Source: Candidatus Spongiisociaceae bacterium | GTDB taxonomy: Bacteria; Actinomycetota; Acidimicrobiia; Spongiisociales; Spongiisociaceae | NCBI GenBank assembly: GCA_965219685.1 | Contig: CBDCOH010000002.1 | Location: 3,744,001 to 3,808,000 of the forward strand | Direction: 5' to 3' | DNA length: 64,000 bases | Part shown: positions 1,699 to 62,869 of the stretch, one piece after another | Numbering within the stretch: position 1 is the stretch's first letter | Layout: each line of letters opens with the position of its first letter | The notes under the pieces: generated by a model | The model's database searches: none | Told to the model about the DNA's origin: nothing | Seen by the model: the letters and a program-made list of their open reading frames with translations, nothing else | Translations under genes and position numbers: made by a program

Positions 1699-1942
1699 CT
1701 ATGTGATTAGTTCCTAGTCGGTAGTCAGTAGTCAGTAGTCAGCAATCGGTAGTTACCGTTAGGTCGGATCACTTGCCATCCTCCATAGCATTGTTCGGGT
1801 CTCGCGGTTTACACCCGGGGGGGTGAGGGGTCCGAGTCCAGAAACAGACGTATAACAAGTTGCAGATGTATTGTACGGCGTTGTATAGCACATAGTAGAG
1901 TACGGTCGCTTCCGGTTAGATCCCTTGGAACTACTCGTCTAG
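1699..1942. mobile_element. MITE-like dispersed element, copy A (inverted relative to copy B)
   Basis: Three blocks of 19/19, 30/31 and 19/19 identity to 16885-17163; imperfect 19-bp inverted ends; internal TAGTCRG heptamers. Confidence 0.65.
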
Positions 1943-2281: not shown

Positions 2282-3520
2282 ATGGCAGAAGGCCGCGATC
2301 CGATCAGCAGGAGGGACTTCGTAAAGCTAGCCGGCAAGGGGGCGGTCGTAGCGGGCGCCATGCCGGCCGTGCTGGCCGCCTGCGGTGAGGATGCTCCACC
2401 CGAGACGGTGGTCGTGACATCGATCGTCACCGAGATCGAAGAGAAGATCGTCACCGAGACCGAGACGATTATCGAGACCGTAGTCGAGGAAGCGCCCACC
2501 ACCACCCTCAGCCCGCGTGACGCAGGGTTGGCCGCGGAGAACGGTGCCGACCTCCTCATCTACGCCCCGCCCGGGCGGGAGATCCCGACGCAGTGGCCGG
2601 GTTACCTCGGCAGGTTCCCGGAGCCGCAGTTCGCAGCGACCGCCGGAAGCTTCGCCTCGCTCGGTGAGTTGCAGCTGGGCGCCATCGAGCCTGACATCTG
2701 GAACCCGTGCTTCGCGGTGTTCGATACTGCGGTGAGCGAGGGTTTGGTGCAGGCGTGGGATACGGACCTGATCCCCAACTTCGCGGACCTGAACCCGAAC
2801 CTGACCGCGGCAACCTCGCGCGACGGCAACCAGTACGCCATTCCGCTGCTGTACGGCCTGGCGATCCCCATCTACCGGGCAGACCTGTACACGCCGAAGG
2901 AGAACTCCTACTCCATCCTCTTCGACGAGGATCTGGCGGGGAAGGTCACCTGGACGGACTCGGCCGAGTGGTTCGTGGTAGCCGGCAAGCTTCCGGAGAA
3001 CAACGTGGCCAACCCCCTGGATCCGACCGAGGAGGAACTGGACCGCCTCGTCGAGTTCATGAAGAGAAAGATCAGGATTGTTCCGGCCGCTCTGTACAGC
3101 GATCTGGCCACCAACCAGACCGATCTGGCTACGGGCAACATCGTGGCCTCGTACGTCGCGCCTACCCAGTGGATCGAGTTGACCAAGCAGGGTGTCGACA
3201 TCGCCTTCATCACCCCGGACGAGGGCTTCATCGGGTTCTCGTGCGGCTATTTCCTGATGGCCGGCGCCGATCAGTACTACCACGCCCACGAGTGGGTCAA
3301 TGCGGCGGTCAGTGTCGAGGCGGCCCTGACCATCTCGAACAAGTTCAACTTCGGGAACTCCAACCTGAAGGCGACTGCGGTCGACAACCCGTTGCTGGTG
3401 GACGTGATGGGACTGGGTAACCCCTCCGCTCTGGACGGGGTCTCGCTGCTCGACAAGATGCAGAACATCGACCGGCTGAACGACGCGTGGATCGAGGTTA
3501 AGGCGGCAGCCGGAGTCTGA
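2282..3520 (+). CDS. PotD/PotF-like ABC substrate-binding lipoprotein, Tat signal
   Basis: SRRDFVK twin-arginine motif, LAAC lipobox, IPNFADLNP and YAIPL motifs; GGAGG RBS; heads a Pot-type operon. Confidence 0.85.
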   Translation: MAEGRDPISRRDFVKLAGKGAVVAGAMPAVLAACGEDAPPETVVVTSIVTEIEEKIVTETETIIETVVEEAPTTTLSPRDAGLAAENGADLLIYAPPGREIPTQWPGYLGRFPEPQFAATAGSFASLGELQLGAIEPDIWNPCFAVFDTAVSEGLVQAWDTDLIPNFADLNPNLTAATSRDGNQYAIPLLYGLAIPIYRADLYTPKENSYSILFDEDLAGKVTWTDSAEWFVVAGKLPENNVANPLDPTEEELDRLVEFMKRKIRIVPAALYSDLATNQTDLATGNIVASYVAPTQWIELTKQGVDIAFITPDEGFIGFSCGYFLMAGADQYYHAHEWVNAAVSVEAALTISNKFNFGNSNLKATAVDNPLLVDVMGLGNPSALDGVSLLDKMQNIDRLNDAWIEVKAAAGV

Positions 3521-3545
3521 TCCACACCCGAGCCAACGAGTTCAG

Positions 3546-3641
3546 GAGGGTGCCGGGTTACCGACGGTCTCAGGCGACTGGTGAGAACCCGTCTCTGTCC
3601 GGCACCCTCTCGGGTCGGTAGGCCATGAAACCTGCCGACCC
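3546..3641 (+). other. Two GC-rich intercistronic stem-loops after the SBP gene
   Basis: GAGGGTGCCGG...CCGGCACCCTC and GGGTCGGTAGG...CCTGCCGACCC inverted repeats; no U-tract. Confidence 0.55.
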
Positions 3642-3647
3642 CTACCA

Positions 3648-4571
3648 TTGAGTTCCGTGGTCTCAGAGAACGACGCTTCCGGGAAGAAAGGTCGCGTAGC
3701 CAGCCTGGCGCGCCGCCGTCACCGGGTGACGCGCTCCCTGCTGGCGCTGCCGCTCGGCTGGCTGCTGCTGTTCTTCGTGATCCCGGTGTCACTGGTCGTC
3801 CTCTATAGCGTCGGGATACTGGCCACCTTCACCAAGGAGGAGGGGGTCAGCCTGGAGAGTTGGAGGCTGTTCCTCACCGGCGAGAACGTCTACATGCTGC
3901 TGTTCATCAAGTCGTTCCGCATGGCTCTCATCGTGGCGGTGGTCGTGGTGATCCTCGCCTACCCGATCGCCTACTTCCTGGCGATGATCGCCGACAAGTA
4001 CAAGTACTCGTTGTTGCTCCTGATGATCGCCCCCTTCATGACCAACTTCTTCATGCGGGTGATGGCGTGGAAGGTGCTGCTGGGCAGGCAGGGGGTGATC
4101 AACTCCTTCCTGTTCTGGTCGGGTCTGCGCGAGGAGGGGAATCCCATCGAGGGCCTCGCCTTCGGGGAGATCCCGGTCATGATCGTGCTGGGATACGTGT
4201 GGATCCCGTTCGTCATGCTGCCGATGTTCGCAGCGATGATCAGCATGGACCGCCGGCTGCTGGAGGCCGCCGCCGACCTGGGAGCGAGCCGGTGGCGGGC
4301 CTTCTGGAAGGTGACCTTCCCGCTCAGCCTCCCCGGAGTGGTGGCGTCCTTCTTCTTCGTGTTCATCCCGACCATCGGAGAGTTCGTGGTGCCCAAGCTG
4401 GTGGGCGGAACCCGGGGCTACATGTTCGGGAGCGCCATCGACGACCTGTTCGGTATGGGTCTCGACTGGCGGACAGGATCCGTGCTGTCCCTCTGGCTCG
4501 TGATGGCGGTGTTCGTCCTGGCGCTGTTGTTCATGCGCTTGGTGCGTTTCGGGAGGCTGGCCGAATCATGA
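3648..4571 (+). CDS. ABC permease, PotB-like
   Basis: Multiple TM segments; LLEAAADLGAS EAA motif. Confidence 0.9.
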   Translation: MSSVVSENDASGKKGRVASLARRRHRVTRSLLALPLGWLLLFFVIPVSLVVLYSVGILATFTKEEGVSLESWRLFLTGENVYMLLFIKSFRMALIVAVVVVILAYPIAYFLAMIADKYKYSLLLLMIAPFMTNFFMRVMAWKVLLGRQGVINSFLFWSGLREEGNPIEGLAFGEIPVMIVLGYVWIPFVMLPMFAAMISMDRRLLEAAADLGASRWRAFWKVTFPLSLPGVVASFFFVFIPTIGEFVVPKLVGGTRGYMFGSAIDDLFGMGLDWRTGSVLSLWLVMAVFVLALLFMRLVRFGRLAES

Positions 4572-8464: not shown

Positions 8465-9439
8465 GTGACAATGGGACCGGAGAAGCGACCGGTAGTTGTA
8501 ATCGCCGAGGTGTTGGCGGCAAGTTGTGCGGACTATCTGCAGGAGAGTTGCGAGGTGGTGACGGCGGCGGGAGAGCCCCGAGACCGTCTCATCGAACTCC
8601 TCACGGACGCCGAAGGGCTGGTGGTTCGCAGCGGCACCCGGGTCGACGGGGAACTGATGGCGGCGGCTCCACGGTTGCGGGTCGTGGGTCGGGCCGGGGT
8701 CGGGGTGGACAACATCGACCTCGACGAGGCCACGCGGCGGGGGATCCTGGTGGTCAACGCTCCGCTGGCGAACAGCGTCTCGGCGGCTGAGCACGCCTTC
8801 GGGCTGATGCTGTCCGTGGCCCGCAACATCGCCCGGGGGGACGCCTCCATACGGTCGGGAAGGTGGGACCGGGCCAAGTTCCGGGGCGTGGAGCTGGATG
8901 GCAAGACCCTCGGCCTAGTGGGCCTGGGGAGGATCGGAACCCTCGTGGCCCAACGTGCCCTGGCCTTCGGCATGAAGGTCCTCGCCTACGATCCCTACAT
9001 CACCGCCGAGCAGGCCCGGGCCGCAGGCGGGGAGCTGAGGGATCTCGACTCGCTACTGGCAGACTCCGATTTCATCTCTCTCCACCTCCCGCGCACCCCG
9101 GAGACGGAGAACCTCCTGGGCAGGGAGGCCTTCGCGAAGGCCAAGCGGGGGATAAGGATCATCAATGCATCCCGGGGCGGGATCATCGACGAGGAAGCCC
9201 TCGTGGAGGCCATCCGGGATGGTCAGGTGGCCGGAGCGGCGCTGGATGTCTACGCCGAGGAGCCGATGACGTCCGGACCCCTCACCGAGATGCCCGAAGT
9301 GGTGCTCACGCCCCATCTGGGAGCCTCCACGGTGGAGGCCCAGAACAAGGCCGGTTTGCACGTTGCGGAGTCGGTAGTGGCCGGCCTCGCGGGTGAACAG
9401 GTGATGGCGGCCGTCAATAAGGTAGTCGGTAGTCGGTAG
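8465..9439 (+). CDS. serA: D-3-phosphoglycerate dehydrogenase, short form without ACT domain
   Basis: RAGVGVDNID, GLGRIG, INASRGG, TPHLGASTVEAQ. Confidence 0.75.
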   Translation: MTMGPEKRPVVVIAEVLAASCADYLQESCEVVTAAGEPRDRLIELLTDAEGLVVRSGTRVDGELMAAAPRLRVVGRAGVGVDNIDLDEATRRGILVVNAPLANSVSAAEHAFGLMLSVARNIARGDASIRSGRWDRAKFRGVELDGKTLGLVGLGRIGTLVAQRALAFGMKVLAYDPYITAEQARAAGGELRDLDSLLADSDFISLHLPRTPETENLLGREAFAKAKRGIRIINASRGGIIDEEALVEAIRDGQVAGAALDVYAEEPMTSGPLTEMPEVVLTPHLGASTVEAQNKAGLHVAESVVAGLAGEQVMAAVNKVVGSR

Positions 9440-9504
9440 TCGGTAGTCGGTAGTCGGTAGTCGGTAGTCGGTAGTCGGTAGTCGGTAGTCGGTAGTCGGT
9501 AGTC
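9421..9504 (+). repeat. (GGTAGTC)12 perfect heptamer tandem repeat containing the serA stop
   Basis: 12 identical units counted directly; stop TAG at 9437-9439. Confidence 0.97.
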
Positions 9505-9536
9505 AGCGGGATCAGGTACGACTAGGCTACCAAGCA

Positions 9537-9561
9537 CTAACAACTATAGACTATTAACTAG
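9537..9561 (-). repeat. Degenerate heptamer array, opposite orientation
   Basis: CTAACAA CTATAGA CTATTAA CTAG. Confidence 0.6.
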
Positions 9562-9577
9562 AGCCTACGGATCAATT

Positions 9578-9611
9578 TGCATGAATATGCAGACACACGT
9601 ATGATCATGCA
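9578..9611 (+). promoter_or_regulatory. Tandem ARG boxes (ArgR operator)
   Basis: TGCATGAATATGCA and CGTATGATCATGCA, starts 20 bp apart, directly before argC. Confidence 0.85.
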
Positions 9612-16884: not shown

Positions 16885-17163
16885 CTAGACGAGTAGTTCC
16901 AAGCCATCCCGGCCGGAAGTGATCACACTAACCTAGCGGTGTACAACGCCGCACAACACAGCTGTGACTCGTATGTGTCAGTCTATCTTGCCACCGGTCA
17001 CCCATCTTCCATCCCGGGGGCTGCCACTTCGTGAAGAGTCACCCGCGGCGCAAGGCGCGAGACCCGAACAGTGCTATGGAGGATGGTAAATAATTCGATC
17101 CAGGTTTAACCATCGGAAACCAACTAGAAACTACAGACTACCGACTAGGAACTATTCATCTAG
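16885..17163. mobile_element. MITE-like dispersed element, copy B
   Basis: Ends CTAGACGAGTAGTTCCAAG and CTAGGAACTATTCATCTAG are inverted (16/19); homologous to 1699-1942. Confidence 0.7.
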
Positions 17164-25560: not shown

Positions 25561-26795
25561 GGCAGAGGGGCCGGGAACGCCTCCGGGTAGATCTTCGGCA
25601 TCGCCTCGTCCAGCACGAAGTTCGTACCGTTGATGCCTCGGGAGGTACCCCAGATGAAGAAGTCCACCTCGTGTACCTCGCCATTCTGGACTGCCACGAG
25701 CTCTCTCCAGATCACATTGTCCACGAGCTGCTCGGACACCGGCTCCGGGGGTGTAGGCCCGAATCCGTAGGTCTGGACGAAGATGACATCGGGATCGACA
25801 GCTAGCAACTGCTCCACGGAGAAGCTCACGAACGGATTGTGGACATCACAGCTGGTGAACTCCGGGGGGTATGCCGTTGCGTGAGCCAGCGCATCTATGG
25901 CCGGCGTGCACACCGTTTCGGCGCCGATATTGACATCGGACCCGTACACCACCATGACGGACCTCTCGGTGGTGACTCCCGCAACGTACTGCTCGAGCCG
26001 GGCCTCGAATGCCGCCACCGCGTCCTCAGCCTCGTGTTCCATTCCGAGGAGGATTCCGACCTCGACGACATGAGCGAGCATTCCTTCGACGCCGATCGGG
26101 TTGACGATGAACAGGGGTGCGATGCTCTCGAGGGCGGCGCGCAGCCCGTCATGAACGCCGCCGAGTCCGATGACTATGTCGGGCTCCGCATGCGCGATGT
26201 CTTCCAGGCTCGGCTCGAAGAAGGATCCGCTGATGGGCCCGATCTCGTTCTCGTCCGGTCCCCAGTAGGCGGGATCCCGGTGTAGCAGGTCATTGGCGGC
26301 AACCGGCTTGATCCCGAGTACGAACAGAGTGTCGACGCAGAGTCCCGTGAGGCAGACAACCCGGACCGCCGGCGCCTCCAGCGTGACCATCTCACCGGTA
26401 GCGTCTTCGACGGTGCGGGGCTGATCAGACATCGCCCCATCCGCGTGGTCGTCGTCTTCGTGGTCATGGTCCGCGTGGTCGTCGTCGTGGTCGTCGTCGT
26501 CGTGGTTGTCGTCTTCGTGGTCATGGTCCGCGTGGTCGTCGTCTTCGTGTTCGTCGTCGTCGTCGGCGTGGTCGTCTTCGTGTTCGTCGTCTTCTTCTTC
26601 GTGGTCGTGTTCGTCGGTTGTCGGGGGTGCAGAGGTGGTGGTTGTGGTCTCGGCCATCACGGTGGTTGCCACCGTGATGTCGCTCGCGTCATCCCCGCCG
26701 CAGGCCGTTGCTACCAAGAACAGCGCAAACATCGCGGCGGCGGCCCGGGCAATCCGACCGGGTCCGGCCTTGGGTCCCTGGACACGCGACATCAC
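25557..26795 (-). CDS. Iron-siderophore-type binding lipoprotein with His/Asp-rich linker
   Basis: TAC lipobox; DEHDHEEEDDEH... tract; PSLEDI..EPD and AVQNGEV motifs. Confidence 0.85.
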   Translation of the reverse strand: MMSRVQGPKAGPGRIARAAAAMFALFLVATACGGDDASDITVATTVMAETTTTTSAPPTTDEHDHEEEDDEHEDDHADDDDEHEDDDHADHDHEDDNHDDDDHDDDHADHDHEDDDHADGAMSDQPRTVEDATGEMVTLEAPAVRVVCLTGLCVDTLFVLGIKPVAANDLLHRDPAYWGPDENEIGPISGSFFEPSLEDIAHAEPDIVIGLGGVHDGLRAALESIAPLFIVNPIGVEGMLAHVVEVGILLGMEHEAEDAVAAFEARLEQYVAGVTTERSVMVVYGSDVNIGAETVCTPAIDALAHATAYPPEFTSCDVHNPFVSFSVEQLLAVDPDVIFVQTYGFGPTPPEPVSEQLVDNVIWRELVAVQNGEVHEVDFFIWGTSRGINGTNFVLDEAMPKIYPEAFPAPLP

Positions 26796-30639: not shown

Positions 30640-33030
30640 GTGTTGACAATGCCGGATCGTAAGACAGGCTTAGGACGTATGGCCCGGGTATTGACTGCGG
30701 GCCTCGTCATGTTCGTTGTGGCTCTCCTGGCTGCCTGCGGGGATGACCCGGACACGCAGACGACGGAAGCGTCGGCAACAACTGCCGCCGTCGAGAGCGC
30801 CACACCCTCCGGCCCGCCGATCCAGGTGGTGGCAACCACCAACTTCGTGGCTGACTGGGCTCGAGTCGTGGGTGGAGAGAGGGTCGAGGTCTTCGGCCTG
30901 CTGCAACCGGGTGGTGATCCGCACTCATTCCAGCCGGGAGCGCGCGACGTTGCCAGGGTGGCGGATGCGGATGTCGTGTTCACTGTCGGTCTCGGTCTGG
31001 AAGCAGATTGGCTGGACGATCTGTTACGCAGTGCCAGCGCGGATGAGTCCCGGATTGTCGCGCTTGGCGACTTTGTGGATCCCATCGAGTTCGCGGACGA
31101 CATGCACGATGATCATGCGGATCACGACGATGACCACGCGGATCACGCGGATGATCATATGGATCACGATGATCACGAGGATGATCATGCGGATCACGAC
31201 GACCACGCGGATGACGCCCATGGCGAGATGATCGCGGGCCGCCTGGTCGTGGCGGATGCGGCAGAAGCGCACCTTTCGGTCATCGATCTGTCGACTGATG
31301 ACGTTGACAGCGGGATCTTCGAGGTCGCCGCGCCCGGCGCGACCGTGTATCCCAGTCCCACCCATCGCTACGCCATCGTCCTCGCCCGCGGGCCGGAGGA
31401 CAGCGACGACCGCATCCATGTCTTCGACGGCGGGGTGTTCCTCGTCCCGCACGGCGATCACTACGACCTGGTCAGCGAGCCCGTGTCACGCCACTCGCTC
31501 GAGATCGCCGAGGAAATGCCGGTCCATTACGTCAACACCCACGGCTGGACCACGATCTTCGCCGACGCCGAGGGCCACGTGATCCTGATCAACGAGCAAG
31601 ATCTGGCCAACTCGACGGGCGACTATGAACCGATCGTGCTCGAGGCCGGGCCGCAACATGGCGCAGCTCTGGTGATCTCAGAGGGACACATCGCCGTCAC
31701 GACTCCGCATCCGGAGTACGCCGAAAACCCCGATTTCTGGAACATTCTTCCAGAAGGTGTTGAAGTGCGTACGTTTGACAACGAACTCGTCTTCGACGCG
31801 GGCGAATGCCATCGCCTGCACGGCGAATCGCATAACGCGCACGGCGCCGTCTTCGGATGCTGGGACGGGACGCTCTTCCTGGACGCGCACGACGGCGAGT
31901 ACGAGCGTGAGCTCATCCCATATCCACCGGAGGCCGGCGAATACGGAGAGTTCGCGATCGGCCAGTACTTCGGTCATCATCACAGCGACCACTTCTTCGG
32001 CCAGTCGACCCTCTTCCCCGGCGGGGAGTGTTGTGTCCAGGGCGGCGTCTGGCTGGTGGACGTGGCCCACGGCGAAATGAGCGAGGTGTTCGCTGAGCCC
32101 AGTGCTGCGGCTGCGTTCTCCAGCGACGGCGAAACCTTCTACATGCTCGCGGCTGACGGCGTGCTGCGCGCGTTCGACGCCCATGACGGCGAACTGATCG
32201 GCACCATGCAGTTGGTGGACCCGTTCGAGATGGTGTTCGGGAGTCCCTCGCCCGCGATCGTCGTCGTCGGCGACATGATGTACGTCGCCGACCCGAACAG
32301 CGGTCATGTCCTCGGGGTCCATCTCACGCACATGGAGATCGAAGAGGAATGGCACGTCGGCGGCGCGCCGTCGAGCCTGGCCTTCGTCGGTATCGCCGAC
32401 TCGGGCGACGCACACGAAGATGAGCACGCGCACGAAGATGAGCACGCGCACGAAGATGAACACGGGCACGAAGAGGACGGCCACGCTCACCACGATCACG
32501 GCCCTCATGATCCGCACTTCTGGTTCGATCCGATCCGGGTGAAGGTCGCAGTCAACGAGATAGCCATGCGGTTTGCGGCCTTAGACCCCGCGAACGCAGA
32601 CACCTACTTCCAGAACGCCGCGGAATACGCGCAAGAGCTGGACGAGCTTCACGCCTGGACCCAGGAGCAGGTCAGCATGGTGCCGCCGGAGCGCAGACAA
32701 CTGGTCACGTCACATGACAGCCTTTCCTACTTCGCAAGCCTCTATGGGTTCGAGATAGTTGGTCTAGTGATACCTTCCCTGTCTCCTGATGTGGAGCCCT
32801 CCGCGGAGCACATTGCGGGACTGGTCGACGTGATACGGGAGCACAACGTGCCGGCATTGTTCGGCGAGACGACGGTCAGCGACAAGCTGGCGCAAGCCGT
32901 GGCGAGGGAGACCGGTGCGATCCTGGTCCAGCTCTACTCGGGCTCGCTCGGGGCGGAAGGCAGCGGCGCCGACACGTACCTCGGCATGGTGCGGGCAAAC
33001 GTGGAACGTATTGTTGAGGCATTGAAGTGA
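30640..33030 (+). CDS. ZnuA/AztC-type metal-binding lipoprotein with nested AztD-like domain
   Basis: LAAC; GGDPHSFQP and GLGLE; His-rich tract; HGDH/LHGE/FGC insert; second His-rich tract; DPHFWFDP, TSHDS. Confidence 0.85.
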   Translation: MLTMPDRKTGLGRMARVLTAGLVMFVVALLAACGDDPDTQTTEASATTAAVESATPSGPPIQVVATTNFVADWARVVGGERVEVFGLLQPGGDPHSFQPGARDVARVADADVVFTVGLGLEADWLDDLLRSASADESRIVALGDFVDPIEFADDMHDDHADHDDDHADHADDHMDHDDHEDDHADHDDHADDAHGEMIAGRLVVADAAEAHLSVIDLSTDDVDSGIFEVAAPGATVYPSPTHRYAIVLARGPEDSDDRIHVFDGGVFLVPHGDHYDLVSEPVSRHSLEIAEEMPVHYVNTHGWTTIFADAEGHVILINEQDLANSTGDYEPIVLEAGPQHGAALVISEGHIAVTTPHPEYAENPDFWNILPEGVEVRTFDNELVFDAGECHRLHGESHNAHGAVFGCWDGTLFLDAHDGEYERELIPYPPEAGEYGEFAIGQYFGHHHSDHFFGQSTLFPGGECCVQGGVWLVDVAHGEMSEVFAEPSAAAAFSSDGETFYMLAADGVLRAFDAHDGELIGTMQLVDPFEMVFGSPSPAIVVVGDMMYVADPNSGHVLGVHLTHMEIEEEWHVGGAPSSLAFVGIADSGDAHEDEHAHEDEHAHEDEHGHEEDGHAHHDHGPHDPHFWFDPIRVKVAVNEIAMRFAALDPANADTYFQNAAEYAQELDELHAWTQEQVSMVPPERRQLVTSHDSLSYFASLYGFEIVGLVIPSLSPDVEPSAEHIAGLVDVIREHNVPALFGETTVSDKLAQAVARETGAILVQLYSGSLGAEGSGADTYLGMVRANVERIVEALK

Positions 33031-37705: not shown

Positions 37706-37781
37706 CTGGCCAGTTGCCAGTTGCCACCGTAAGCCAGTACTAATAACTACCGACTAGCCTTTAGCAACTAACGACTAGTTA
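37706..37781. repeat. Opposed heptamer arrays between convergent genes; contains the ExeM stop
   Basis: CCAGTTG x2, then CTAATAA CTACCGA CTAGCCT TTAGCAA CTAACGA CTAGTTA. Confidence 0.7.
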
Positions 37782-40449
37782 CCGCCCGGTAGGCCCTGGC
37801 CAGGAACGACGCCATCTGCTGGCGGGTCGTGCAGGCGTCGGGGGAGAAGGTCGTCCGGGATGTGCCTTCCGTCACTCCGAGCCCGAAGATGCGGCCGATG
37901 TCACCGCTCGCCGAGGTCACTTCCCCGCCCAGGTCCGTGAACGGTGTCGCGCCTACCGGAGCGAGGCTGCCTGTCACCAAGGTGTAGAACCTGGCCAGCA
38001 GGGTCGCCATCCGGCCACGGGACACGCAGGCATCGGAGGAGACGGTCGCGAACGGCGCGTCTGCGATGATCCCGAGTCCGTAGATGCGGCGGATGTCGTC
38101 GCGGTGGGCGTCCGAAGTGTTGCCGAGGTCGGCGTACGGTGGCTCGACGACCGGCGGATCCTCGCCCACCACGGCTTCGTAGAGCCGGGCGAGGAAGGAG
38201 GCCGTCTGTTGCAGTGACGCGGGCATGCGCGGGGAGAAGGTCGTCGGGGATGTGCCTTTCGTGATTCCGAGTCCGTGGATGCGGCGTATGTGGTCGCGGT
38301 GGGCGTCCGAGGCGTCCGCGAGGTCGGTGAACGGCGTCTCTGTCACCGGAGCCTCGCCGGCCGGAGCCCGTCTGCCCGCGGTGGGGCTCTTCCCGAGTCG
38401 AAGACCGACGATCACCGGATCGTGGTCCGATGAACGGAACGCGTTGGCCTCGTAGATGGGCAGCGCCGCCGACTCCCGCTGGTAGGCCCGCTCACCCGGG
38501 TCGTGGACATCGTCGTTGTAATCGAACAGCGGTGGCTCGTCGGCGTTGATCTGCCACGCGGCCACCCCGGTGACCTGGCGCAGCAGCGACGGGCTGGCCA
38601 GGGCGTAGTCCAGGTATCCGAGTTGGCCGTCGAAAAGGTAGCCGTAGGCGTCGGCGCCGACGAACCGCCTTATCAGGTCGGTGTAGCCTGCTGTCTCCAA
38701 CGCCCTGATCGGATCTTCCCGGGCGTAAGCGTTCAGATCGCCGATTATCAGGATGTCGGGGTCGCCGCCGGCCGTCGGATCAGTGGCGAGGTACCGGGCG
38801 AGGGCTTCGGCGGCCGCGGTCCGGGTGGCGTTGCAGTTGCCCTGGCCGTCGCGGCGGTCCGGATCGCCTAGTTCTTCGCAGCTCGATCCCTTCGACTTGA
38901 GATGGTTGACCGCGACCGTGAAGCGCTCGCCGGTCGCCACCTCCTCGAAGGTCTGGATCAGGCCGGGCCGGTTCTTCGTGTCGGCGAACGCCGTGTCGAC
39001 CGACGAATCGATGATGATGTGAGTCCCGACGGGGGTCACCCACTCGGGTTGGTAGATCAGCCCGACTTTGATGACGTCGCTTCCGATGGCCGCAGTGTCC
39101 ACGTAGGCATACCGGTCGGGCTCCGCGGCGGAGTTCAGACCGGCTACCAGGTCGGCGAGCGAGGCCGAGTCGTCGTTCTCGATCTCCACCACGCCGAAGA
39201 CATGGGCGCCGATCGCGACCATCGCGGCGACGATCTTGTCCCGCTGCCGGTCCAGTTCCGCCGCCGAGTCGGCACCCCGGCAGCCGAGGTCGCCACCCGG
39301 CCCGCAGAGCGGTGTCCCGTCATCGATCGTGTTGAAGTAGTTCAGAACGTTGAAGCCGACCACCTTGAGGCGGCCGCCCACCTCCGCGGGAGCCGCGGGC
39401 CGCGGGTTGTCCGCATCGAACGTGTAGTCGAACCGCTCGGGTACGGGCTGGATCCTCCAGGCGTCGAATGCCCAGTGCATCACCCCGGTAAGGCCTCTGA
39501 TCGAGTCGCCGCCCCGGAAGCGATTGGTGATGCTCAGCCCGCCTTCGGGATACGGATAGGCCTCGTCCTCCGCCTGCGGGGGGTTGATGGCCTCGTTCTG
39601 GTCGGCGTTGCCGTCGTCGAGGACTATCCGCCTTGTAGCGAGGTCGGCCAGAAAAGCTGCGTATCCCGTGGTGCTCGGCGGGTGTCGATGGGTGAACTGG
39701 TACGGCCGGGACCCGTCGGTGAGGACGATCTCGCCGTACCGGGCGAGCCAGTAGTACTCGCTGACCACCAGCTTGCCCGGGAACGTTACGACCATGGCTT
39801 CGACGTTCTCGAAGGTTCCCGCCGCCCGTGTGCTGCCCGAGGCGGGAAGCGACAGCACCGTCGGGGCCGGAAGATCGTTTCCCGACGAGCGGACCGTGAC
39901 GCTGCCTTCGGATGCGTCGATCTGGCTCGCGCCGCCGAACTCCCCCGCCACCCCCACCACCGTCACCCCGTCGCCCACCGCCAGGCCGTCGGGGCACGCG
40001 GTCGAGCAGTGGACGTAGATTCCCTCGGAGGTGGCCGGGTCGCCATCGCGGTCGGCGTCCTCCTCCTGGAGGGAGAATCCGCTCAGCCGGTCATCGTGCT
40101 CGAACAGCGAGGTGACTATCGCCTCGACCGTGACCGGTCCTGCGATCGCAACGGTGGCTCCGTTGCCCTGTACTTGGGAAATGCGCAGCAACTCGGGCGT
40201 CCCGGTCGGGGCGGCCGGCGGGTCGGGATCCCGAGTCTGGTCGATGGATGCCGGTCCGGCTGCAAGGGCGGGCGCGGCGCCGGCCGCGACTAACCATCCG
40301 ACCACCAGGACCAGGGTGGCCCGGACGGTTGTGGAGAGGGGTGTCAAGTCAGTGTCTCCCGAGAAGCGTGTGTGGGCGCGGATCCGATCGTAGACACGTC
40401 GTCGATGCCGGTCGTGGAACGACCCTGCCCGGGCTCCTGTGCTCGTCAT
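37768..40449 (-). CDS. ExeM/NucH extracellular endonuclease with C-terminal SLH-like repeats (start uncertain)
   Basis: TSEGIYV, FNVLNYF, NHLKSKG, GDLNAY, SSDHDP; three PFTD...GI..G...FSP-type repeats. Confidence 0.9.
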   Translation of the reverse strand: MTSTGARAGSFHDRHRRRVYDRIRAHTRFSGDTDLTPLSTTVRATLVLVVGWLVAAGAAPALAAGPASIDQTRDPDPPAAPTGTPELLRISQVQGNGATVAIAGPVTVEAIVTSLFEHDDRLSGFSLQEEDADRDGDPATSEGIYVHCSTACPDGLAVGDGVTVVGVAGEFGGASQIDASEGSVTVRSSGNDLPAPTVLSLPASGSTRAAGTFENVEAMVVTFPGKLVVSEYYWLARYGEIVLTDGSRPYQFTHRHPPSTTGYAAFLADLATRRIVLDDGNADQNEAINPPQAEDEAYPYPEGGLSITNRFRGGDSIRGLTGVMHWAFDAWRIQPVPERFDYTFDADNPRPAAPAEVGGRLKVVGFNVLNYFNTIDDGTPLCGPGGDLGCRGADSAAELDRQRDKIVAAMVAIGAHVFGVVEIENDDSASLADLVAGLNSAAEPDRYAYVDTAAIGSDVIKVGLIYQPEWVTPVGTHIIIDSSVDTAFADTKNRPGLIQTFEEVATGERFTVAVNHLKSKGSSCEELGDPDRRDGQGNCNATRTAAAEALARYLATDPTAGGDPDILIIGDLNAYAREDPIRALETAGYTDLIRRFVGADAYGYLFDGQLGYLDYALASPSLLRQVTGVAAWQINADEPPLFDYNDDVHDPGERAYQRESAALPIYEANAFRSSDHDPVIVGLRLGKSPTAGRRAPAGEAPVTETPFTDLADASDAHRDHIRRIHGLGITKGTSPTTFSPRMPASLQQTASFLARLYEAVVGEDPPVVEPPYADLGNTSDAHRDDIRRIYGLGIIADAPFATVSSDACVSRGRMATLLARFYTLVTGSLAPVGATPFTDLGGEVTSASGDIGRIFGLGVTEGTSRTTFSPDACTTRQQMASFLARAYRAVTSR

Positions 40450-42579: not shown

Positions 42580-43668
42580 TTGGCAGGTGGTTCGGTCCGC
42601 TACGGGATCATCGGTACAGGGATGATGGGCATCGAGCACATCGGCAACATCCTCGCTATGCGAAACGCGGCGGTCACGGCCGTGGCGGATCCCTACCCAC
42701 CCTCCCGTGAGGCGGCTCGGGAGGCGCTAGACGGGCAGCGGTTCGCGGTCTTCGGCAACCATCGGGAACTGATCGAGTCGAAGCTGTGCGACGCGGTGGT
42801 GGTGTCGACACCCAACATGACCCACATAGACCTCCTCCGTGACCTCCTGGAAACCGATCTACACCTCCTGGTGGAGAAGCCGCTCTGCACCACGGTCGAG
42901 GACTGCCGCCGGGTGGTCGACGCCCAGCGTGATCGCGACGCTGTCCTGTGGGTCGGGATGGAGTACCGCTACATGCCCGCCATCGCCCGGCTGATCGCGG
43001 AGGTCCGGAGGGGCACCGTCGGCGACCTGAAGATGCTGGCGATCCGGGAGCACCGCTTCCCGTTCCTCGAGAAGGTCAACGACTGGAACCGGTTCAACGC
43101 CAACTCGGGAGGCACCCTGGTGGAGAAGTGCTGCCACCACTTCGACCTGATGAACCACATCATCGGCAATCCCCCGGTCCGGGTGTACGCCTCGGGGAGC
43201 CAGGCGGTGAACCATCTGGACGAGCGCTACGGGGGGCGCCAACCCGATATCCTCGACAACGCCTACGTGATCGTGGACTACCGGGACGGGCAGCGGGCCA
43301 TGCTGGACCTCTGCATGTTCGCGGAAGGCGGTGAGAACCAGGAGGAGTTGGTGGCGGTGGGCGACCGCGGCAAGGTGGAAGCCCGCCTACCCTCCGGCCT
43401 GGTGCTCACCGGCATGAGGGAAGGCGACTGGTTCTCCCCGAGGATCGAGACAGCCACCGACAGCCGGATCGCCCACACCGGCGCCCATCACGGCGCGTCG
43501 TACCTGGAACACCTGGAGTTCCTCAACGCTATCCGGAACGGAACCCCTCCGCAGGTCAACGCCTACGACGGCCTGCTGGCCGTCACCATGGGAGTCGCCG
43601 CTCAGCAGTCGATCGAGGAAGGTCGCCCGGTCGACATAGCCGAGATGGTCGAGCAGGACCTGAGGTGA
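42580..43668 (+). CDS. Gfo/Idh/MocA family oxidoreductase
   Basis: GIIGTGMMG, VEKP, EKCCHHFD. Confidence 0.9.
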   Translation: MAGGSVRYGIIGTGMMGIEHIGNILAMRNAAVTAVADPYPPSREAAREALDGQRFAVFGNHRELIESKLCDAVVVSTPNMTHIDLLRDLLETDLHLLVEKPLCTTVEDCRRVVDAQRDRDAVLWVGMEYRYMPAIARLIAEVRRGTVGDLKMLAIREHRFPFLEKVNDWNRFNANSGGTLVEKCCHHFDLMNHIIGNPPVRVYASGSQAVNHLDERYGGRQPDILDNAYVIVDYRDGQRAMLDLCMFAEGGENQEELVAVGDRGKVEARLPSGLVLTGMREGDWFSPRIETATDSRIAHTGAHHGASYLEHLEFLNAIRNGTPPQVNAYDGLLAVTMGVAAQQSIEEGRPVDIAEMVEQDLR

Positions 43669-43772
43669 GTGGACAGGCTGTCCCGTCGTTATAGCGGCAA
43701 CAAGCATGGGTGGCCGTTCGGGGAACTGGCGACCGGAACCTACCCGATCTAACGCTACTCATCCTTTACCAG

Positions 43773-43812
43773 ATAATAACTAGCAACTAACAACTAGAAA
43801 CTAGCTATCTAG
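43773..43812 (-). repeat. Degenerate heptamer array at the AAA gene stop
   Basis: ATAATAA CTAGCAA CTAACAA CTAGAAA CTAGCTAT CTAG. Confidence 0.7.
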
Positions 43813-45171: not shown

Positions 45172-45498
45172 GAGAACCAGGAGGAACTGGTGGCGGTCGG
45201 TGACCGGGGCAAGATGGATGCCCGCCTACCGTCCGGCCTGGTCTTCACCGGCATACGGGAATGTGAGTGGTTAGCACCGACTGTCGAGACAGCGGCCGCC
45301 GGCCGCATCGCTCAACCCTGGCGCCGATCACGGCGCCTCCTACCTGGAACATATGGAGTTCCTGGTGGTGAGCCGCGACGGAACCTTACCCGGGTAAGCG
45401 GCAACGACGGCCTCCTGACGGTAGCCATGGGAGTAGTCACCCAGCGCCCTGTCGAGGACTGAGGTGCTGTCCCGATCGTCGAGGTGATTGGACCCTGA
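45172..45498 (+). pseudogene. Degenerate second copy of the Gfo/Idh/MocA 3' end
   Basis: ENQEELVAVGDRGKMDARLPSGLV... matches 43333 onward, with frameshifts and a stop. Confidence 0.85.
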
Positions 45499-45513: not shown

Positions 45514-48500
45514 TTAGGTAGTCCCCTCGTCATCCGAGGTGATCAGCATGTCCCCGCGCCGCACCAGTTGTCCGTTGTCGATTAGCCAACCGACCCGCTG
45601 ATTGAGACGGGCTTTGATCTTCGGTCCGGCCTTCTGATAGCCGAACTGACGGGCCGTCTCGCGTACGAGGTCGTCTCGCGGTGCACCAAAGGTCTTGCGA
45701 GCGATCAGTAGCAGGCCCTCGTCGATCTCAGCTTCAGCGATGAGGTTTATCGTGCGACCTCCGGTCCGCCTTGGCCGCTGTGGACCTGTCTTGCCCGCCA
45801 GGTGCAGGAAGAGTCCGTTGGTGCCCTCTCGGCCCACAGTCCCATAAGCGATAGCCTGTTCAATTGCTCCTTCGATGTGTTGACGGATAACCTTGCCCGC
45901 TTTCGCATCGTCGTAGATGGTCACCACATGGCTGATTACTTTGTTGACGTGGACCGGCTGCTCTACCGCCACGATCTCTGTCACCAGCTTCGCGAGGCGA
46001 CTTAAAGGAGCATTGAGTACTCTACCCCAGCGACGCTTGCCCTCGAAACAGTGGTACTCGTCGAATAGCTGCGCTGGTCGGGAGGGCTGTAGCACTGGAC
46101 GAGTGTCGTCTCCGTCCTGCAGTGGGGCCGACCGTGACACTTCCGCGGTGCTTTCGCTGGCTGGCTGCGCGTGCTCAGGCGGGTCTTCGCTCCGGGCCCG
46201 TTCAAGAGCTTCCTCGATCGTTCTGATCTCAGTCTCCCGATCGCGGATCCACGCGGTGGACCACACGCGATGAATGTGCCACCCGAGACCTTCGAGCACC
46301 TGCTGCCGTAGCCAATCACGGTCTCGGGCAGCCGGTGACCGGTGGTACGTCGCTCCGTCGCATTCGATGCCCAGATCGAACCGTTCTCCGTCCTCAGCCT
46401 TGATCGCGAGGTCGATGCGATAACCCGATACACCTACCTGAGCCTCAACTCGATGGCCACGCTCGCGTAGCGCTGTGAGCACGGCCTCCTCGAATGGGCT
46501 CTCGGGCTCACCGACGCGGGAAACGGCAGCTTCAAGGGCTTGCTCCGGGTTTCGGACGTACTCGAGATAGCGACGCAGTTGGCGAGCCCCAGGCGATGTT
46601 GATGTGATGTCCTCGGCGCGCAACGAATGAACCACGGTCATCGACTGGCGTGCCCTTGTCACAGCCACGTTGAGTCTCCGCTCACCGCCTTCCTGGTTTA
46701 TCGGTCCGAAACGGTTCGGAACCGCACCCGCGGAGGTGGGTCCGTAACCGACGGAGAGGACCATGTGGTCTCGTTCGTCCCCTTGGACGTTTTCGAGGTT
46801 CTTGACGAAGAAGCGTTCGTCGACATCGCTGCTGAATCGATCATCCAAATGGCGACTGATCAGCCGACGTTCTTCGATCAGGGTCTCGATGAGGTCGGCC
46901 TGCGAACGCGACAGCGCCACCACCCCGATACTCTCATCCCGAGGCTGTGTCTCCAGCAGATCGAAGACGATGTCGGTCACGCGCTCGGCTTCCTCACGAT
47001 TGGTCCGGCGGCCCCCTGCGTCGTAGATGGCTCCCGAGAGGTATACATCCCGGACGGCCGCAGCGGATGGATCTGGATCGGGGAAGGTCAGGAGGCGGTC
47101 TTCGTAGAAGGCATGATTAGAGAATCGGATCAGACTCTCACTGCGGCTCCGATAGTGTACCGTCAAGTACCGTTCTTCGACGCGGTTGCCCACCTGTCCC
47201 ACCATGACGTCGAGAATGCTCTCGCGTCCCTCGAAACTATCACTGGTCTCGTCATCCTCGTCACGGTGGTCGGCGTCGTCCGCGAGGCTACGCCGAAAGA
47301 AAGTGGTGGGCGGGAGTTGGAGTCGATCGCCTACTACGATGACCTGCCTCCCGCGTTCGATGGCTGGGAGCGCATCCTCTGGTAGCACCTGTGAGGCCTC
47401 GTCAAAGATGACCGCATCGAACTCGATTCGGTCGCTCTCCAGTGGTCCGGCAGGCAAGTATTGACTCACTGCGAGGGGGCTCATGAGAAAGCATGGCTTG
47501 AGCGTCTGGAGCAAGTCCGGGATCCGTCGAATGAGACGGCGAACGGGCATCTGCCGACGTTTCTTGGAGAGTTCGCCGTTGAGTATGCCCACTTGCCCTG
47601 CTTGTAAGGGTGTAACGTTTTGCTCCGGGTACTTGCCGAACACCTGTTCCCGGACCCTTCTGCGGGCAGCAACAGGGAACAGGTTGTCGAGACTCCTGAA
47701 CCGCTCTCGGATATCCTCATGATCCACCCTATTGAACATACGCAGATCAGGCTCGATGGCGTACACCTCCTCCAGCCAAACGTCGTAAGCACGGCGTTTG
47801 ACGATGTCCGGTACATCCTTGGCCAGCTTTGTCAGACGGCGGACCTTGTCGGTCGACCCTGTCCCTAGAAGTTCGTCGAAGGAGCTAACGGCGTCCTGAT
47901 ATGCGACCCACGCTGGGGCATCGTCCGCGTTATCGAGAAGGTCAACGGCCCATCCTTCAAGAGCAGTCAAGCTCGGTTCATCCCACGAGTCCCATCCCGT
48001 CGACGCGAGATCAAACCGTTGGTCCAGTAATTCCAACTCCTGCCTGACAGCTTTGATAGCGGTGTCAACTAACTCCGCTCGTTTGGTGTATTCGAACCGC
48101 GGTCGAGGGTTGCTCGCATGGTTCGAGAGTTCTTGGCTGACCTTTCCGTTGGCAGCCTTCACCAAACCCTCCGTCCAGTCGAGAGCTTCCAGGATCAGCG
48201 TCCACTGGGTGGTGTCGCCTTCGAAGAAGTGGCCGAAGTCCGCGGCGAGAGTGGAAGCCAGCCGCTCATCTTCCTCTCTGATCGCCATCAGCCCGACGCC
48301 GACTTCGACGAGTTCTGTCAGCTTCAGCGCGTCGAAGTCGGAAAGCCTCCTTGCGAGACTGCCAATAAGTGGATGGGTAGCACCGCTGACGCGGCGGAGT
48401 GGCGTCACGGCTCGGCGCATGGCCTCGGCGGAGCGCGCAATGTCGAGCGTCGGGCCGGACAACGGCTTGTGACCGACTCGACTCGCGGCCGAGTGGTAGT

Positions 48501-58072: not shown

Positions 58073-59542
58073 ATGATGCAGAACGCCCCTGATAAGACGT
58101 TCGACTTCAAGGTCCGGGATCTCGGGCTGGCCGAGCGGGGCCGGCGCGAGATCGAGTTGGCGGAGCACGAGATGCCCGGCCTGATGGCGCTGCGCGACAA
58201 GTACGCATCCGCCCGACCCCTGGCGGGTGCCCGTATCTCCGGATCGCTGCACATGACCGTGCAGACCGCCGTGTTGATCGAGACCCTGGCGGCACTCGGC
58301 GCAGAGGTCCGCTGGGCCTCGTGCAACATCTTCTCCACCCAGGACCACGCCGCGGCGGCGGTGGTGGTGGGCCATCCGGACGCGGGTGGGACGCCGGACG
58401 ATCCCCGGGGTGTGCCCGTCTTCGCGTGGAAGGGCGAGACACTCGATGAGTACTGGTGGTGTACCGACCGCATGCTCGCGTGGAGCGGCTTCGCCGGCCC
58501 CACGCTGATCGTCGACGACGGCGGCGACGCCACCCTGCTGGTCCACAAGGGCGCTGAGTACGGTCGACTGGGCGCGGTCCCGTCCTTCGACCCGGCCAGC
58601 GAGTCTGAGGAGTGGGGGGTGATCCTGGACCTGTTGCGCGAGCGAATCGCTGACGACCCCGAGTACTTCATCAGCATGGCCGCCTCCGTTCGCGGCGTGA
58701 GCGAGGAGACGACTACCGGGGTCCACCGCCTCTACGAGATGCAGGAGATGGGAACCCTGGCCTTCCCGGCGATGAACGTGAACGACTCGGTGACCAAGTC
58801 CAAGTTCGACAACGTCTACGGATGCCGCCATAGCCTCGTGGACGGACTCAACCGCGCCACCGACGTCATGCTGGGTGGGAAGGTGGCCCTGGTGGCCGGC
58901 TACGGAGAGGTGGGCAAGGGATGTGCCCAGGCACTGCGAGGCCAGGGCTGCCGGGTGGTGGTCTCGGAGATCGACCCGATCTGTGCCCTACAGGCCGCCA
59001 TGGACGGCTACGAGGTCAGCACGGTGGAAAACGTGGTCGAGACAGCCGACATCTTCATCACCGCCACCGGCAACCGCGACGTGATCACCGCAGAACACAT
59101 GTCGAGGATGAAGGACAAGGCCATCGTCGGCAACATCGGGCACTTCGACCACGAGATCGACATCGCCGGCCTCAAGGCGACCGAGGGTGTGGTGAGGCGG
59201 AACATCAAGCCGCAGTACGACGAGTTCGTGTTCCCGGACGGCCACGGTGTGCTGGTACTCGCAGAGGGCCGGCTCCTGAATCTGGGCTGCGCCACCGGCC
59301 ATCCCAGCTTCGTGATGTCCACCTCCTTCACCAACCAGGTTCTCGCTCAGCTGGATCTGCACGAGAACGCCGACGAGTACGACCTGGAGGTGATGCGCCT
59401 GCCCAAGTACCTGGACGAGGAAGTGGCCCGCCTCCATCTCGATCATCTGGGCGCGGAACTGACCGAACTCACCAAGGACCAAGCCGATTACATAGGCGTA
59501 CCCGTCGACGGACCCTACAAGCGAGACGAATACCGGTATTAG
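58073..59542 (+). CDS. ahcY: Adenosylhomocysteinase
   Basis: [35 protein letters not shown]. Confidence 0.97.
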
Positions 59543-59682
59543 TGAGTGGTGAGTGGTGAGTGGTGGCGGCCTAGACGGTCGCTTGGTGCTTCGTGCCTTT
59601 CACTGTGCTGGGAATCGAGCGGCTTCCCGGAGCGAGCAACCGCCGTGTGTTACACCCTCACCACCATTCACCATTCACCATT
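59540..59682. repeat. Opposed heptamer arrays (TGAGTGG)3 ... (ACCATTC)3 flanking ~90 bp
   Basis: Read directly; starts at the ahcY stop. Confidence 0.75.
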
Positions 59683-59691
59683 CCCCAGCCT

Positions 59692-59725
59692 TGCATATTC
59701 ATTCACATATGTGCATAATCGTGCA
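59692..59725 (+). promoter_or_regulatory. Tandem ARG boxes
   Basis: TGCATATTCATTCA and TGCATAATCGTGCA, starts 20 bp apart, before argR. Confidence 0.85.
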
Positions 59726-61431: not shown

Positions 61432-62793
61432 GTGGCCCAGATGTGGGGAGGCCGGTTTGCGGAGGGCCCCGACGAGCTGCTGTGGCGCTTCACGGTGGAC
61501 CACTCGGACCGACGCCTGCTGCTCGACGATGTCACCGGTTCGCTCGCACACGTAGCGATGCTCGGGTCCGCCGGGCTCCTGGATCCAGGAGAAGTCGAGG
61601 CTCTCACGCAGGGCCTGAAGACCATCGAGTCCGAGGCCGGAGCGGGTAGCTTCTCGTTCTACGACGTCGACGAGGATGTCCACTCCGCGGTGGAGCGGAG
61701 GCTGGGCGCACTGGTGGGAGAGGTGGCCGGCAAGCTCCACACCGGCCGCTCCCGCAACGATCAGGTGGCGCTGGATCTTCGCCTCTACCTGCGGCGCTCG
61801 GCGGAGGAGCGGGTGGCACAACTCCGGGACTTCGCGCTGACGATGGCGTCGGCTGCCGAATCCGTCGGGGAGACCGTGGTCGCCGGCTATACCCACCTCC
61901 AGCAGGCGCAGGCGGTGCCCCTGGCCCATCACCTGCTCGCCTACGCGTCGGCCGCGTTGAGGGACATCGAGAGATTCGAGGATCTGGGCGGGCGCCTCGA
62001 CGTCTCCCCGCTGGGCGCCGGGGCCTTGGGTGGCAGCAGCCTTCCCCTCGACCCGGACCGCTCCGCCGGGCTGCTGGGAATGGCGGGCAGGTTCGTCAAC
62101 TCGATGGACGCGGTGGCTGCCCGGGATCACGTATCCGAGTACGCCTTCGCCTGCTCCCAAGCGCTGCTTCACCTGTCCCGGTTGGCCGAGGAGTGCGTGC
62201 TGTGGACCACCACGGAGTTCGGATGGATCACCTTCAGCGACGCGCTCACCACCGGGTCGTCGGCCATGCCACACAAGAAGAACCCCGACATCGCCGAGCT
62301 CACCCGCGGCCGGGCGGCCATCGCCCTTGGGCACCTGGCAGGACTGATGGCCTTGCAGAAGGGCCTGCCCATGACCTACAACCGGGATCTGCAGGAGGAC
62401 AAGGCGGCGCTGTTCGCCATCGACGACGCCCTGGCGGGGGCGCTGGAGGCGATGGCCGCCCTGATCCGGAGCGCCGAGTTCCACCCGCCCCTTCCGGACT
62501 CGTCCGTAACCGCTCTCGACCTGGCCGAGGCTCTGGTCGAGAGGGGCGTTCCGTTCCGGGAAGCGCACGAGGCGGTCGGCGCGTTGCTGGCATCCCTCAT
62601 TGCGGACGGGAGGACGCTGTCGGCGGCCACCACGGAGGATCTGGACGCGATGGATGTCAGGTTCGAGCCGGCCGATCTGGCCCTGACCGAACCGGTCGAG
62701 TCGGTCCGCCGCCGGCGGTCGACAGGGGGGGCGAGCTTCGCCTCGGTGCGGGAGCAACTGCGGATGCTGAGGGATCGGCTGGGTAGTTGTTAG
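61432..62793 (+). CDS. argH: Argininosuccinate lyase
   Basis: WGGRF, HTGRSRNDQ, GSSAMPHKKNPD. Confidence 0.96.
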   Translation: MAQMWGGRFAEGPDELLWRFTVDHSDRRLLLDDVTGSLAHVAMLGSAGLLDPGEVEALTQGLKTIESEAGAGSFSFYDVDEDVHSAVERRLGALVGEVAGKLHTGRSRNDQVALDLRLYLRRSAEERVAQLRDFALTMASAAESVGETVVAGYTHLQQAQAVPLAHHLLAYASAALRDIERFEDLGGRLDVSPLGAGALGGSSLPLDPDRSAGLLGMAGRFVNSMDAVAARDHVSEYAFACSQALLHLSRLAEECVLWTTTEFGWITFSDALTTGSSAMPHKKNPDIAELTRGRAAIALGHLAGLMALQKGLPMTYNRDLQEDKAALFAIDDALAGALEAMAALIRSAEFHPPLPDSSVTALDLAEALVERGVPFREAHEAVGALLASLIADGRTLSAATTEDLDAMDVRFEPADLALTEPVESVRRRRSTGGASFASVREQLRMLRDRLGSC

Positions 62794-62869
62794 TTGCTAG
62801 TTGCTAGTTACAATGGTGAGCGATGGATTGAGTCATTTGCCATCCTTATTAGTGGTGCTTGGGCCTCAC
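62784..62869. repeat. Heptamer array (contains argH stop) plus partial, diverged copy C of the MITE-like element
   Basis: TAGTTGT TAGTTGC TAGTTGC TAGTTAC, then TGGATTGAGTCATTTGCCATCCT...GGGCCTCAC matching the A/B core. Confidence 0.6.

Follow-up and report, generated by a model that had tools for sequence, protein, structure and literature searches.

The window analyzed here is a 64,000-nt stretch of DNA from an Acidimicrobiia-like genome. Coding sequence occupies 91% of it, and gene identities were assigned by Pfam searches of 50 window open reading frames. Period-7 scans reveal ten arrays of tandem heptamers, hereafter called arms, at positions 1708 (+), 9423 (+), 9560 (-), 17154 (-), 37706 (+), 37777 (-), 43803 (-), 59540 (+), 59690 (-) and 62784 (+), and all ten are either intergenic or touch only the ends of genes (Table 1). 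Arrays with three T-R-G-T units at period 7 occur nine times in the window, whereas 200 block shuffles yield 0.015 on average and never more than one; the tenth arm is of a CAGT type and falls outside this set. The heptamer arrays are real, and they are non-random in both place and orientation. A first-pass annotation had reported such arrays at the ends of serA, ExeM, the AAA gene, ahcY and argH, as well as inside two MITE-like copies, and every one of these is present where it had been placed. No Rfam families, tRNAs or tmRNAs were detected in the window.

Table 1. Heptamer arms and MITE-like elements in the window
Feature	Position	Strand	Description
Element A	1699..1942 (244 nt)		Heptamer arm 1708-1756 (+); 16-nt terminal repeat at far end 1927-1942; left terminal repeat degenerate
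Left arm, serA-argC pair	9421..9506	+	12 near-perfect TAGTC(G/A)G units; SerA last codons and TAG 9437-9439 (unit 3)
Right arm, serA-argC pair	9519..9563	-	5-6 degenerate TAGT units directed back at serA; upstream of argC (5' end)
Element B	16885..17163 (279 nt)		16-nt terminal inverted repeats CTAGAyGArTAGTTCC; heptamer arm 17106-17154 (-)
GH1 arm (left arm, GH1-ExeM pair)	37706..37730	+	Stop-free CAGTTGC units directly after GH1's TGA
ExeM arm (right arm, GH1-ExeM pair)	37736..37780	-	Degenerate TAGT; ExeM last codons and TAG 37768-70
AAA/DUF4143 arm	43769..43812	-	Starts at the gene's CTAG stop; motif resembles terminal repeat of elements A and B
Left arm, ahcY-argR pair	59540..59567	+	T(A/G)GTGAG units; unit 1 is the ahcY TAG
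Right arm, ahcY-argR pair	59660..59690	-	TGGTGAA units, upstream of argR
argH arm	62784..62850	+	Units 62784-62811; ArgH last codons and TAG (unit 2)

Other features of the window were recorded alongside the arms. Palindromic TGCA...TGCA sites at 9578-9591, 59692-59705 and 59712-59725 lie upstream of argC and argR, directly after the arms, and resemble what we take to be ArgR operator boxes; a sigma-70-like site at 9576-9605 overlaps the one at argC. Beyond the AAA/DUF4143 gene there is a partial copy (77-81% identical) of the 3' part of a Gfo/Idh/MocA gene (43333-43545 and 45172-45385), and the AAA/DUF4143 gene sits as if within a local duplication. Beside it, 45514-51615 (-) encodes a 2033-aa protein with DUF4011, SF1 helicase and MTES_1575 nuclease domains, giving the region the look of a defense-like island. 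The ExeM-type nuclease has three coding repeats of 195 nt (37841-38362) in its S-layer-like C-terminal region, and His/Asp-rich coding repeats (26444-26616, 31105-31214 and 32408-32474) occur in iron-/zinc-binding ABC transporter components of a large metal-uptake cluster.

The rule that governs the arms is one of geometry: the TAGT strand leaves the neighboring gene toward a complementary arm, and the outer edge of the array meets a stop or start codon. In 10 of 10 window arms (6 at gene ends and 4 at gene starts) the TAGT strand is directed away from the nearest gene. Because each TAGT strand is averted from its flanking gene, the two arms of a site are complementary and able to form a stem. 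Three facing pairs are present (serA-argC, GH1-ExeM and ahcY-argR) in addition to element B. On its outer side, none of the ten arms has a match that exceeds the shuffles. The AAA and argH arms have no partner arm within 300 nt.

This geometry is not confined to the window. A GTDB scan with the seed (TAGTCRG)x3 returned at least 124 loci, 80 of them with 2.5-kb flanks and 44 with about 300 nt, and the matches listed come from at least 14 phylum-level groups as labeled. Some genomes or families (Pyrinomonadaceae, Tychonema/Microcoleus) contribute several loci, and the loci are thus not independent. In 42 of the 124 matches listed an opposite arm follows the seed within 150 nt downstream, and in none does one lie upstream. 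When the overlapping loci L028, L064 and L075 are set aside, a complementary arm within 300 nt lies downstream in 56 of 121 listed loci and upstream in one, whereas no partner was detected in that range for 65 of the 121 seeds. The first-pass annotation had remarked that several arrays face an oppositely oriented array, and such pairs prove to be the rule.

Clustering of 1113 ORFs near the GTDB arrays yielded no common cargo family. Individual loci have features of their own. At L027, an IS630-type transposase (HTH plus DDE_3, in two ORFs, 2497-3812) lies between two same-orientation arrays, as if inside one, and at L079 (2491-3323) differing heptamer and octamer arrays alternate in mosaic-like fashion with a repeated palindromic GCATTCC...GGAATGC unit. 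Two array-bearing loci (L034 and L050) have Klebsiella pneumoniae MAG labels that may be wrong.

Facing arms raise the question of folding. The ahcY-argR arms share a TGGTGA unit that is absent from other window arms, and they fold into a stem of about 27 bp that uses G-U pairs and scores -72.1 (z -3.66) on the sense (+) strand and -63.1 (z -2.76) on the antisense (-) strand. The serA-argC arms reach a complementarity score of 15-17 against a shuffle maximum of 11.5; this stem (z -1.41) and that of GH1-ExeM (z -0.54) are weak. The stronger sense-strand fold at ahcY is consistent with domesticated RNA hairpins, in which the stem would shield the upstream mRNA at its 3' end, or serve as an RNase III-type cut site or as an insulator ahead of the following promoter. 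Immediately beyond both co-directional pairs lie promoter-like or ARG-box-like sites, and stability roles have been proposed for STRR hairpins at hupS-hupL and hoxW (PMC2670836). However, among 21 GTDB pairs the sense strand gives the better fold in only 11, and the G-U versus A-C asymmetry is opposite to the prediction (18:53 versus 32:32), a difference that stems from a small number of long arrays in cyanobacteria. A scan of serA-argC and ahcY-argR for intrinsic terminators (a short GC stem plus a U tract) returned none at either site, and the weakness of the serA stem also speaks against a general role. The hairpin suggested in the first-pass annotation therefore retains a plausible geometry, but a function in sense-strand RNA is unsupported across the GTDB loci, and we consider this reading rather unlikely as an account of the arms. 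An RNA role at single sites such as ahcY is possible; it would be secondary and is compatible with the mobile-element reading developed below.

A second explanation begins with the stop codons. Of the six window genes that have an arm at the 3' end, five terminate with TAG, versus 5 of the 40 other genes (Fisher p=0.001), and five of these six arms carry stops in every frame of the gene's strand. The last 2-5 codons are drawn from the array in serA (...VVGSR*), ExeM (...VTSR*) and argH (...GSC*), which, as had been claimed, also take their stop from it. The stop triplet was said to recur every 7 nt, mostly as TAG, with a TAA unit in the ExeM array and TGA at ahcY. The TAA does lie at 37761-63, but the true stop of ahcY is the TAG at 59540-42, where the match to the Pfam model finishes (residues 11-488 of 489); its TGA triplets occupy unit positions 4-6 in another phase, and the position equivalent to TAG reads TGG in units 2-4. 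The arm that follows GH1, offered at the time as a counter-example, does lack stops.

Such observations could mean that 3' arrays are kept by selection as all-frame terminators that halt read-through or frameshifted ribosomes. The composition of the units does not favor this idea. Top-base fractions among 45 distinct window units are 0.84 for T1, 0.69 for A2, 0.78 for G3 and 0.82 for T4, with at most 0.47 at the remaining positions. The arms were bounded by hand here, with the GH1 arm placed one base out of register, and this misplacement reduces every value a little. The fourth base, which is outside the stop triplet, is conserved as strongly as the triplet itself, and position 2 alternates between A and G to give TGG. 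Placement was correctly expected to be non-random, whereas the expected conservation of the triplet above the rest of the unit is not seen. Nor are the arrays specific to 3' ends, even though TAG is enriched there: 4 of the 10 window arms are on the 5' side of their nearest gene (amidohydrolase, argC, ribD-C and argR), where TAG is on the strand directed away from the gene. Elements A and B each lie between divergent genes, and so there is no stop to rescue. Three units would suffice for a terminator, and serA, with 12, has many more.

The GTDB loci permit a broader view. Gene calls there were made with a heuristic of our own that missed 4 of 46 genes when applied to the window. Among 77 loci in the matches listed, the outer edge of the array is at a 3' end in 28, at a 5' end in 16 (16 of 44 assignable seeds) and at neither in 33, a 3' preference with p=0.10 against 50:50. 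In the 3'-end loci the gene stops before the array in 13 cases, at unit 1 in nine and deeper in six, so that 22 of 28 use the first unit at most, and stops in units 1:2:3 are distributed 9:3:1 (p=0.018). TAG is the stop in 20 of the 28 array-end genes versus 39 of the 159 genes that have no array at their end (p=3e-6), an enrichment to which the TAG in the search seed itself contributes. Partner arms offer the test with the least bias; in them, TAG units make up 43 of 90 at 3' ends, 15 of 23 at 5' ends and 41 of 74 where no end could be assigned, while all frames are closed by 7 of 18 partner arms at 3' ends and 2 of 5 at 5' ends. Partner arms thus show no 3' excess of TAG, with the 5' class being small (5 arms). 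Selection for all-frame termination is largely refuted by this test, and we regard it as very improbable. The milder wording in the same first-pass annotation, that arrays are tolerated at gene ends, fits the data.

The terminator idea has one further point in its favor, since the C-terminal tails of SerA relatives suggest that an array took over termination in several of them. Of 120 relatives, labeled where labels exist as Acidimicrobiia or Actinomycetota, 70 are short forms and the others are proteins of about 525 aa with ASB and ACT domains. The window protein, encoded at 8471-9439, is a short D-3-phosphoglycerate dehydrogenase that lacks both regulatory domains, as does its whole clade of relatives, while other Acidimicrobiia have the form of about 525 aa; the short clade has likely lost feedback by serine. 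A comparison of orthologue C-termini, recommended earlier as a check on the arrays, was run for SerA at the protein level. Twenty-five of the 70 short proteins end in RV, two residues past AVN, and 23 among the closer relatives have variable tails of 3-6 residues (RVAGG ten times, KVVGSR, RVGGSR, SVVSG, SVASG, KVGDSR and others) that, judged from protein alone, read like translations of different heptamer variants. Because these tails look array-like, the serA arm is probably older than the window genome; its unit has probably drifted, and it probably came to supply the stop of a tail that the protein can do without. A recent expansion by slippage is suggested by the 12 perfect units at serA.

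Elements A and B provide a different perspective on the arms. Both have the features of a MITE, namely terminal inverted repeats, a length within 70-300 bp, a non-coding sequence and multiple copies, here two. They share blocks with 88% (43 nt) and 74% (89 nt) identity. On one side of each, the 16-nt terminal repeat runs into the heptamer arm, and a similar motif begins at the stop of the AAA gene. Element B folds with its ends paired (z -2.8), and its end complementarity of 15.5 exceeds the shuffle maximum of 12.5; in element A the match between arm and far end is not above shuffles. The approximately 50 nt that follow the argH arm weakly resemble the inner end of A and B (score 49 versus a shuffle maximum of 50.5). 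CTAG is present at both ends of B. A fixed CTAG target was considered as a general rule and rejected, as the outermost unit is preceded by G in 99 of 121 seeds and by various bases in the partner arms. No IS transposase domain turned up among the 50 window ORFs scanned, so that no mobilizing enzyme was found in the window, and the DNA of element B has no match in plasmids or phages.

If these are mobile elements, one source of mobility might be a RAYT-type HUH transposase acting on a REP/REPIN family. The arms do resemble REPINs in that two inverted units able to form a hairpin lie near gene ends as facing doublets beside stops. At L069 a Y1_Tnp gene lies between facing arms, and the serA unit contains GTAG. 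However, this L069 gene is accompanied by a separate, inner set of inverted repeats bearing the GGGGWSAS motif described for TIRtrons (PMC3733652), and on that account it may be a passenger. Moreover, instead of palindromic units of 20-40 nt tagged GTAG or CGTC, the arms consist of tandem heptamers, with GTAG absent from most window units, and no Y1 or RAYT gene was found among the 50 window ORFs scanned. Mobilization by a RAYT-type enzyme is accordingly improbable.

More attention is due to a family of small genes. PF05635 is the 23S rRNA intervening-sequence protein or four-helix-bundle family, probably related to the Avd of DGRs. At L089 a complete PF05635 gene sits exactly between facing arms, much as intervening sequences carry a small gene within inverted flanks, although the L089-type gene is located between protein-coding genes and not in a 23S rRNA setting. 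At L123 such a gene, in a similar arrangement and orientation, ends just inside an arm. Facing arms could on this basis be the remnants of cassettes that enclose an IVP/Avd-like gene whose protein moves or processes the element, and the window would then contain emptied, decayed copies. Homologues of the L089 protein have C-termini consistent with this, because 33 of 120 end in peptides that the inner strand of an arm would encode (TTDN, LTTDY), whereas such peptides occur at none of 120 SerA-family C-termini and in 9 of 885 internal windows; these homologues are all close relatives, 68-77% identical to one query.

Against a cassette origin, a significant PF05635 match occurs in only 3 of the 124 GTDB loci listed and in none of the 80 with long flanks. 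The third of these genes, at L114, has flanking arrays in direct orientation, as do the arrays of L113, and a PF05635-type gene on a plasmid (L125) has no array by eye. In the window itself no interior was found to encode or derive from PF05635, in contrast to L089, L114 and L123. The interiors of A and B do end in an ETRT[MV]LWRM reading that, by eye, is positioned like the C-terminus of a four-helix bundle. A four-helix-bundle origin for these interiors was nonetheless rejected, as it received no support from profile, homologue or pairwise searches: neither NCBIfam (12 frames) nor Pfam gave a match, six-frame chunks did not match a profile of the 120 homologues, a homologue search gave nine candidates with none at E<=10, phmmer against 1.84 billion proteins returned only four repetitive multi-stretch hits, and the best of 30 pairwise shuffle comparisons stood at 10/300. 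The cassette origin is best treated as a tentative idea, somewhat doubtful but not to be neglected.

Much about the repeat units themselves is familiar. The window heptamers (Y-R-G-T-N-R-N) are a known kind of repeat, the STRR/TAACTGA type, and like these they form tandem 7-nt units far above chance. TAACTGA repeats occur in Beggiatoaceae, Cyanobacteria and Bacteroidetes, where they are oriented toward start codons (MacGregor 2015, PMC4679880). They too are mostly intergenic, their reverse complement is a YAGT-type unit, and their ACT strand points toward starts as it does at window argC, argR and ribD-C; this orientation holds in 4 of 4 window 5' arms and in 16 GTDB seeds. As presented in that account, the TAACTGA repeats have one exact unit, form mostly single arrays at start codons and carry their stops on the ACT strand, whereas the window arms have degenerate units, are paired face to face and, in this Acidimicrobiia-like genome, use stops on the TAGT strand. 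The same account notes that sets of these repeats have three-frame stops and that 13 overlap a stop, which it reads as tolerance. The three-frame property is therefore already published (PMC4679880), and it looks incidental.

Comparisons with other systems lead to similar conclusions. STRRs are 7-bp intergenic repeats capable of forming hairpins (PMC2670836), as the present arms are, and the (TAGTCRG)x3 scan retrieved the STRR unit from Tychonema and Microcoleus. STRRs have been described for filamentous cyanobacteria, whereas the arms are found in at least 14 phylum-level groups as labeled and are anchored at gene edges. Units of 7 nt were reported by Mrazek et al. 2007, as summarized in PMC4679880, to be the commonest long SSR, with slippage as the proposed cause; the heptameric LSSRs appear in that summary without a pairing rule, an orientation rule or a degenerate family. 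Geobacter heptamers use other units (PMC2700814). REPs/REPINs, TIRtrons and MITEs are comparable in their facing doublets near coding ends, their hairpin potential and their non-autonomous copies with terminal inverted repeats, as in A and B (PMC3733652, PMC5581495, 10.1101/279083), but REPs and REPINs are built of palindromes in place of tandem heptamer arms, and no dedicated transposase was found in the window. A literature search for facing heptamer arms with four-helix-bundle genes, or for a pairing rule across phyla, returned nothing, which is weak evidence of absence given limited coverage of subscription journals.

On balance, the arms are probably parts of small intergenic inverted-repeat elements, REPIN/MITE-like in form and built from STRR/TAACTGA-type heptamers, with the use of their stops being tolerated. 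Organization is by facing pairs, each able to form a stem around an interior of 10-250 nt that sometimes holds a small gene. Arms may gain and lose units by 7-nt slippage, the two arms at one site may tend toward a common unit variant, and their outward growth is presumably halted by coding or ribosome-binding sequence. Where an arm reaches a 3' end, the counts suggest that a TAG unit might stand in for the native stop or lengthen the protein by 2-5 codons without much penalty; given this low cost, such cases would persist and TAG would become enriched. All-frame stopping would follow as a by-product of period 7 and the presence of TAG in the unit. Elements A and B indicate that the unit is capable of being copied in MITE/REPIN-like form. 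The unpaired AAA and argH arms, together with the GTDB seeds that have no detected partner within 300 nt, count against a strictly paired element.

There are practical consequences of these repeats for annotation, because the arms add spurious-looking tails to proteins (VVGSR, LTTDY, TTDN) and produce false ORFs. The findings most worth following are the strict cross-phylum rule of facing pairs, the way in which these hug stop and start codons, and the link to four-helix-bundle genes. Together they make it possible to test an old question, namely why degenerate 7-mers are the commonest long tandem repeats of bacteria and what function they serve. A bolder and more speculative proposal, unlikely on present evidence, is that facing heptamer pairs constitute one pan-bacterial family that unites STRR, TAACTGA and heptameric LSSRs. 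Full copies would carry a four-helix-bundle gene, whose protein would recognize the arm duplex and help to copy or process it, and the window pairs would be emptied, non-autonomous copies. If this were true, the orphan PF05635 family would gain a substrate, and the dominance of 7-mers among bacterial tandem repeats would be explained.
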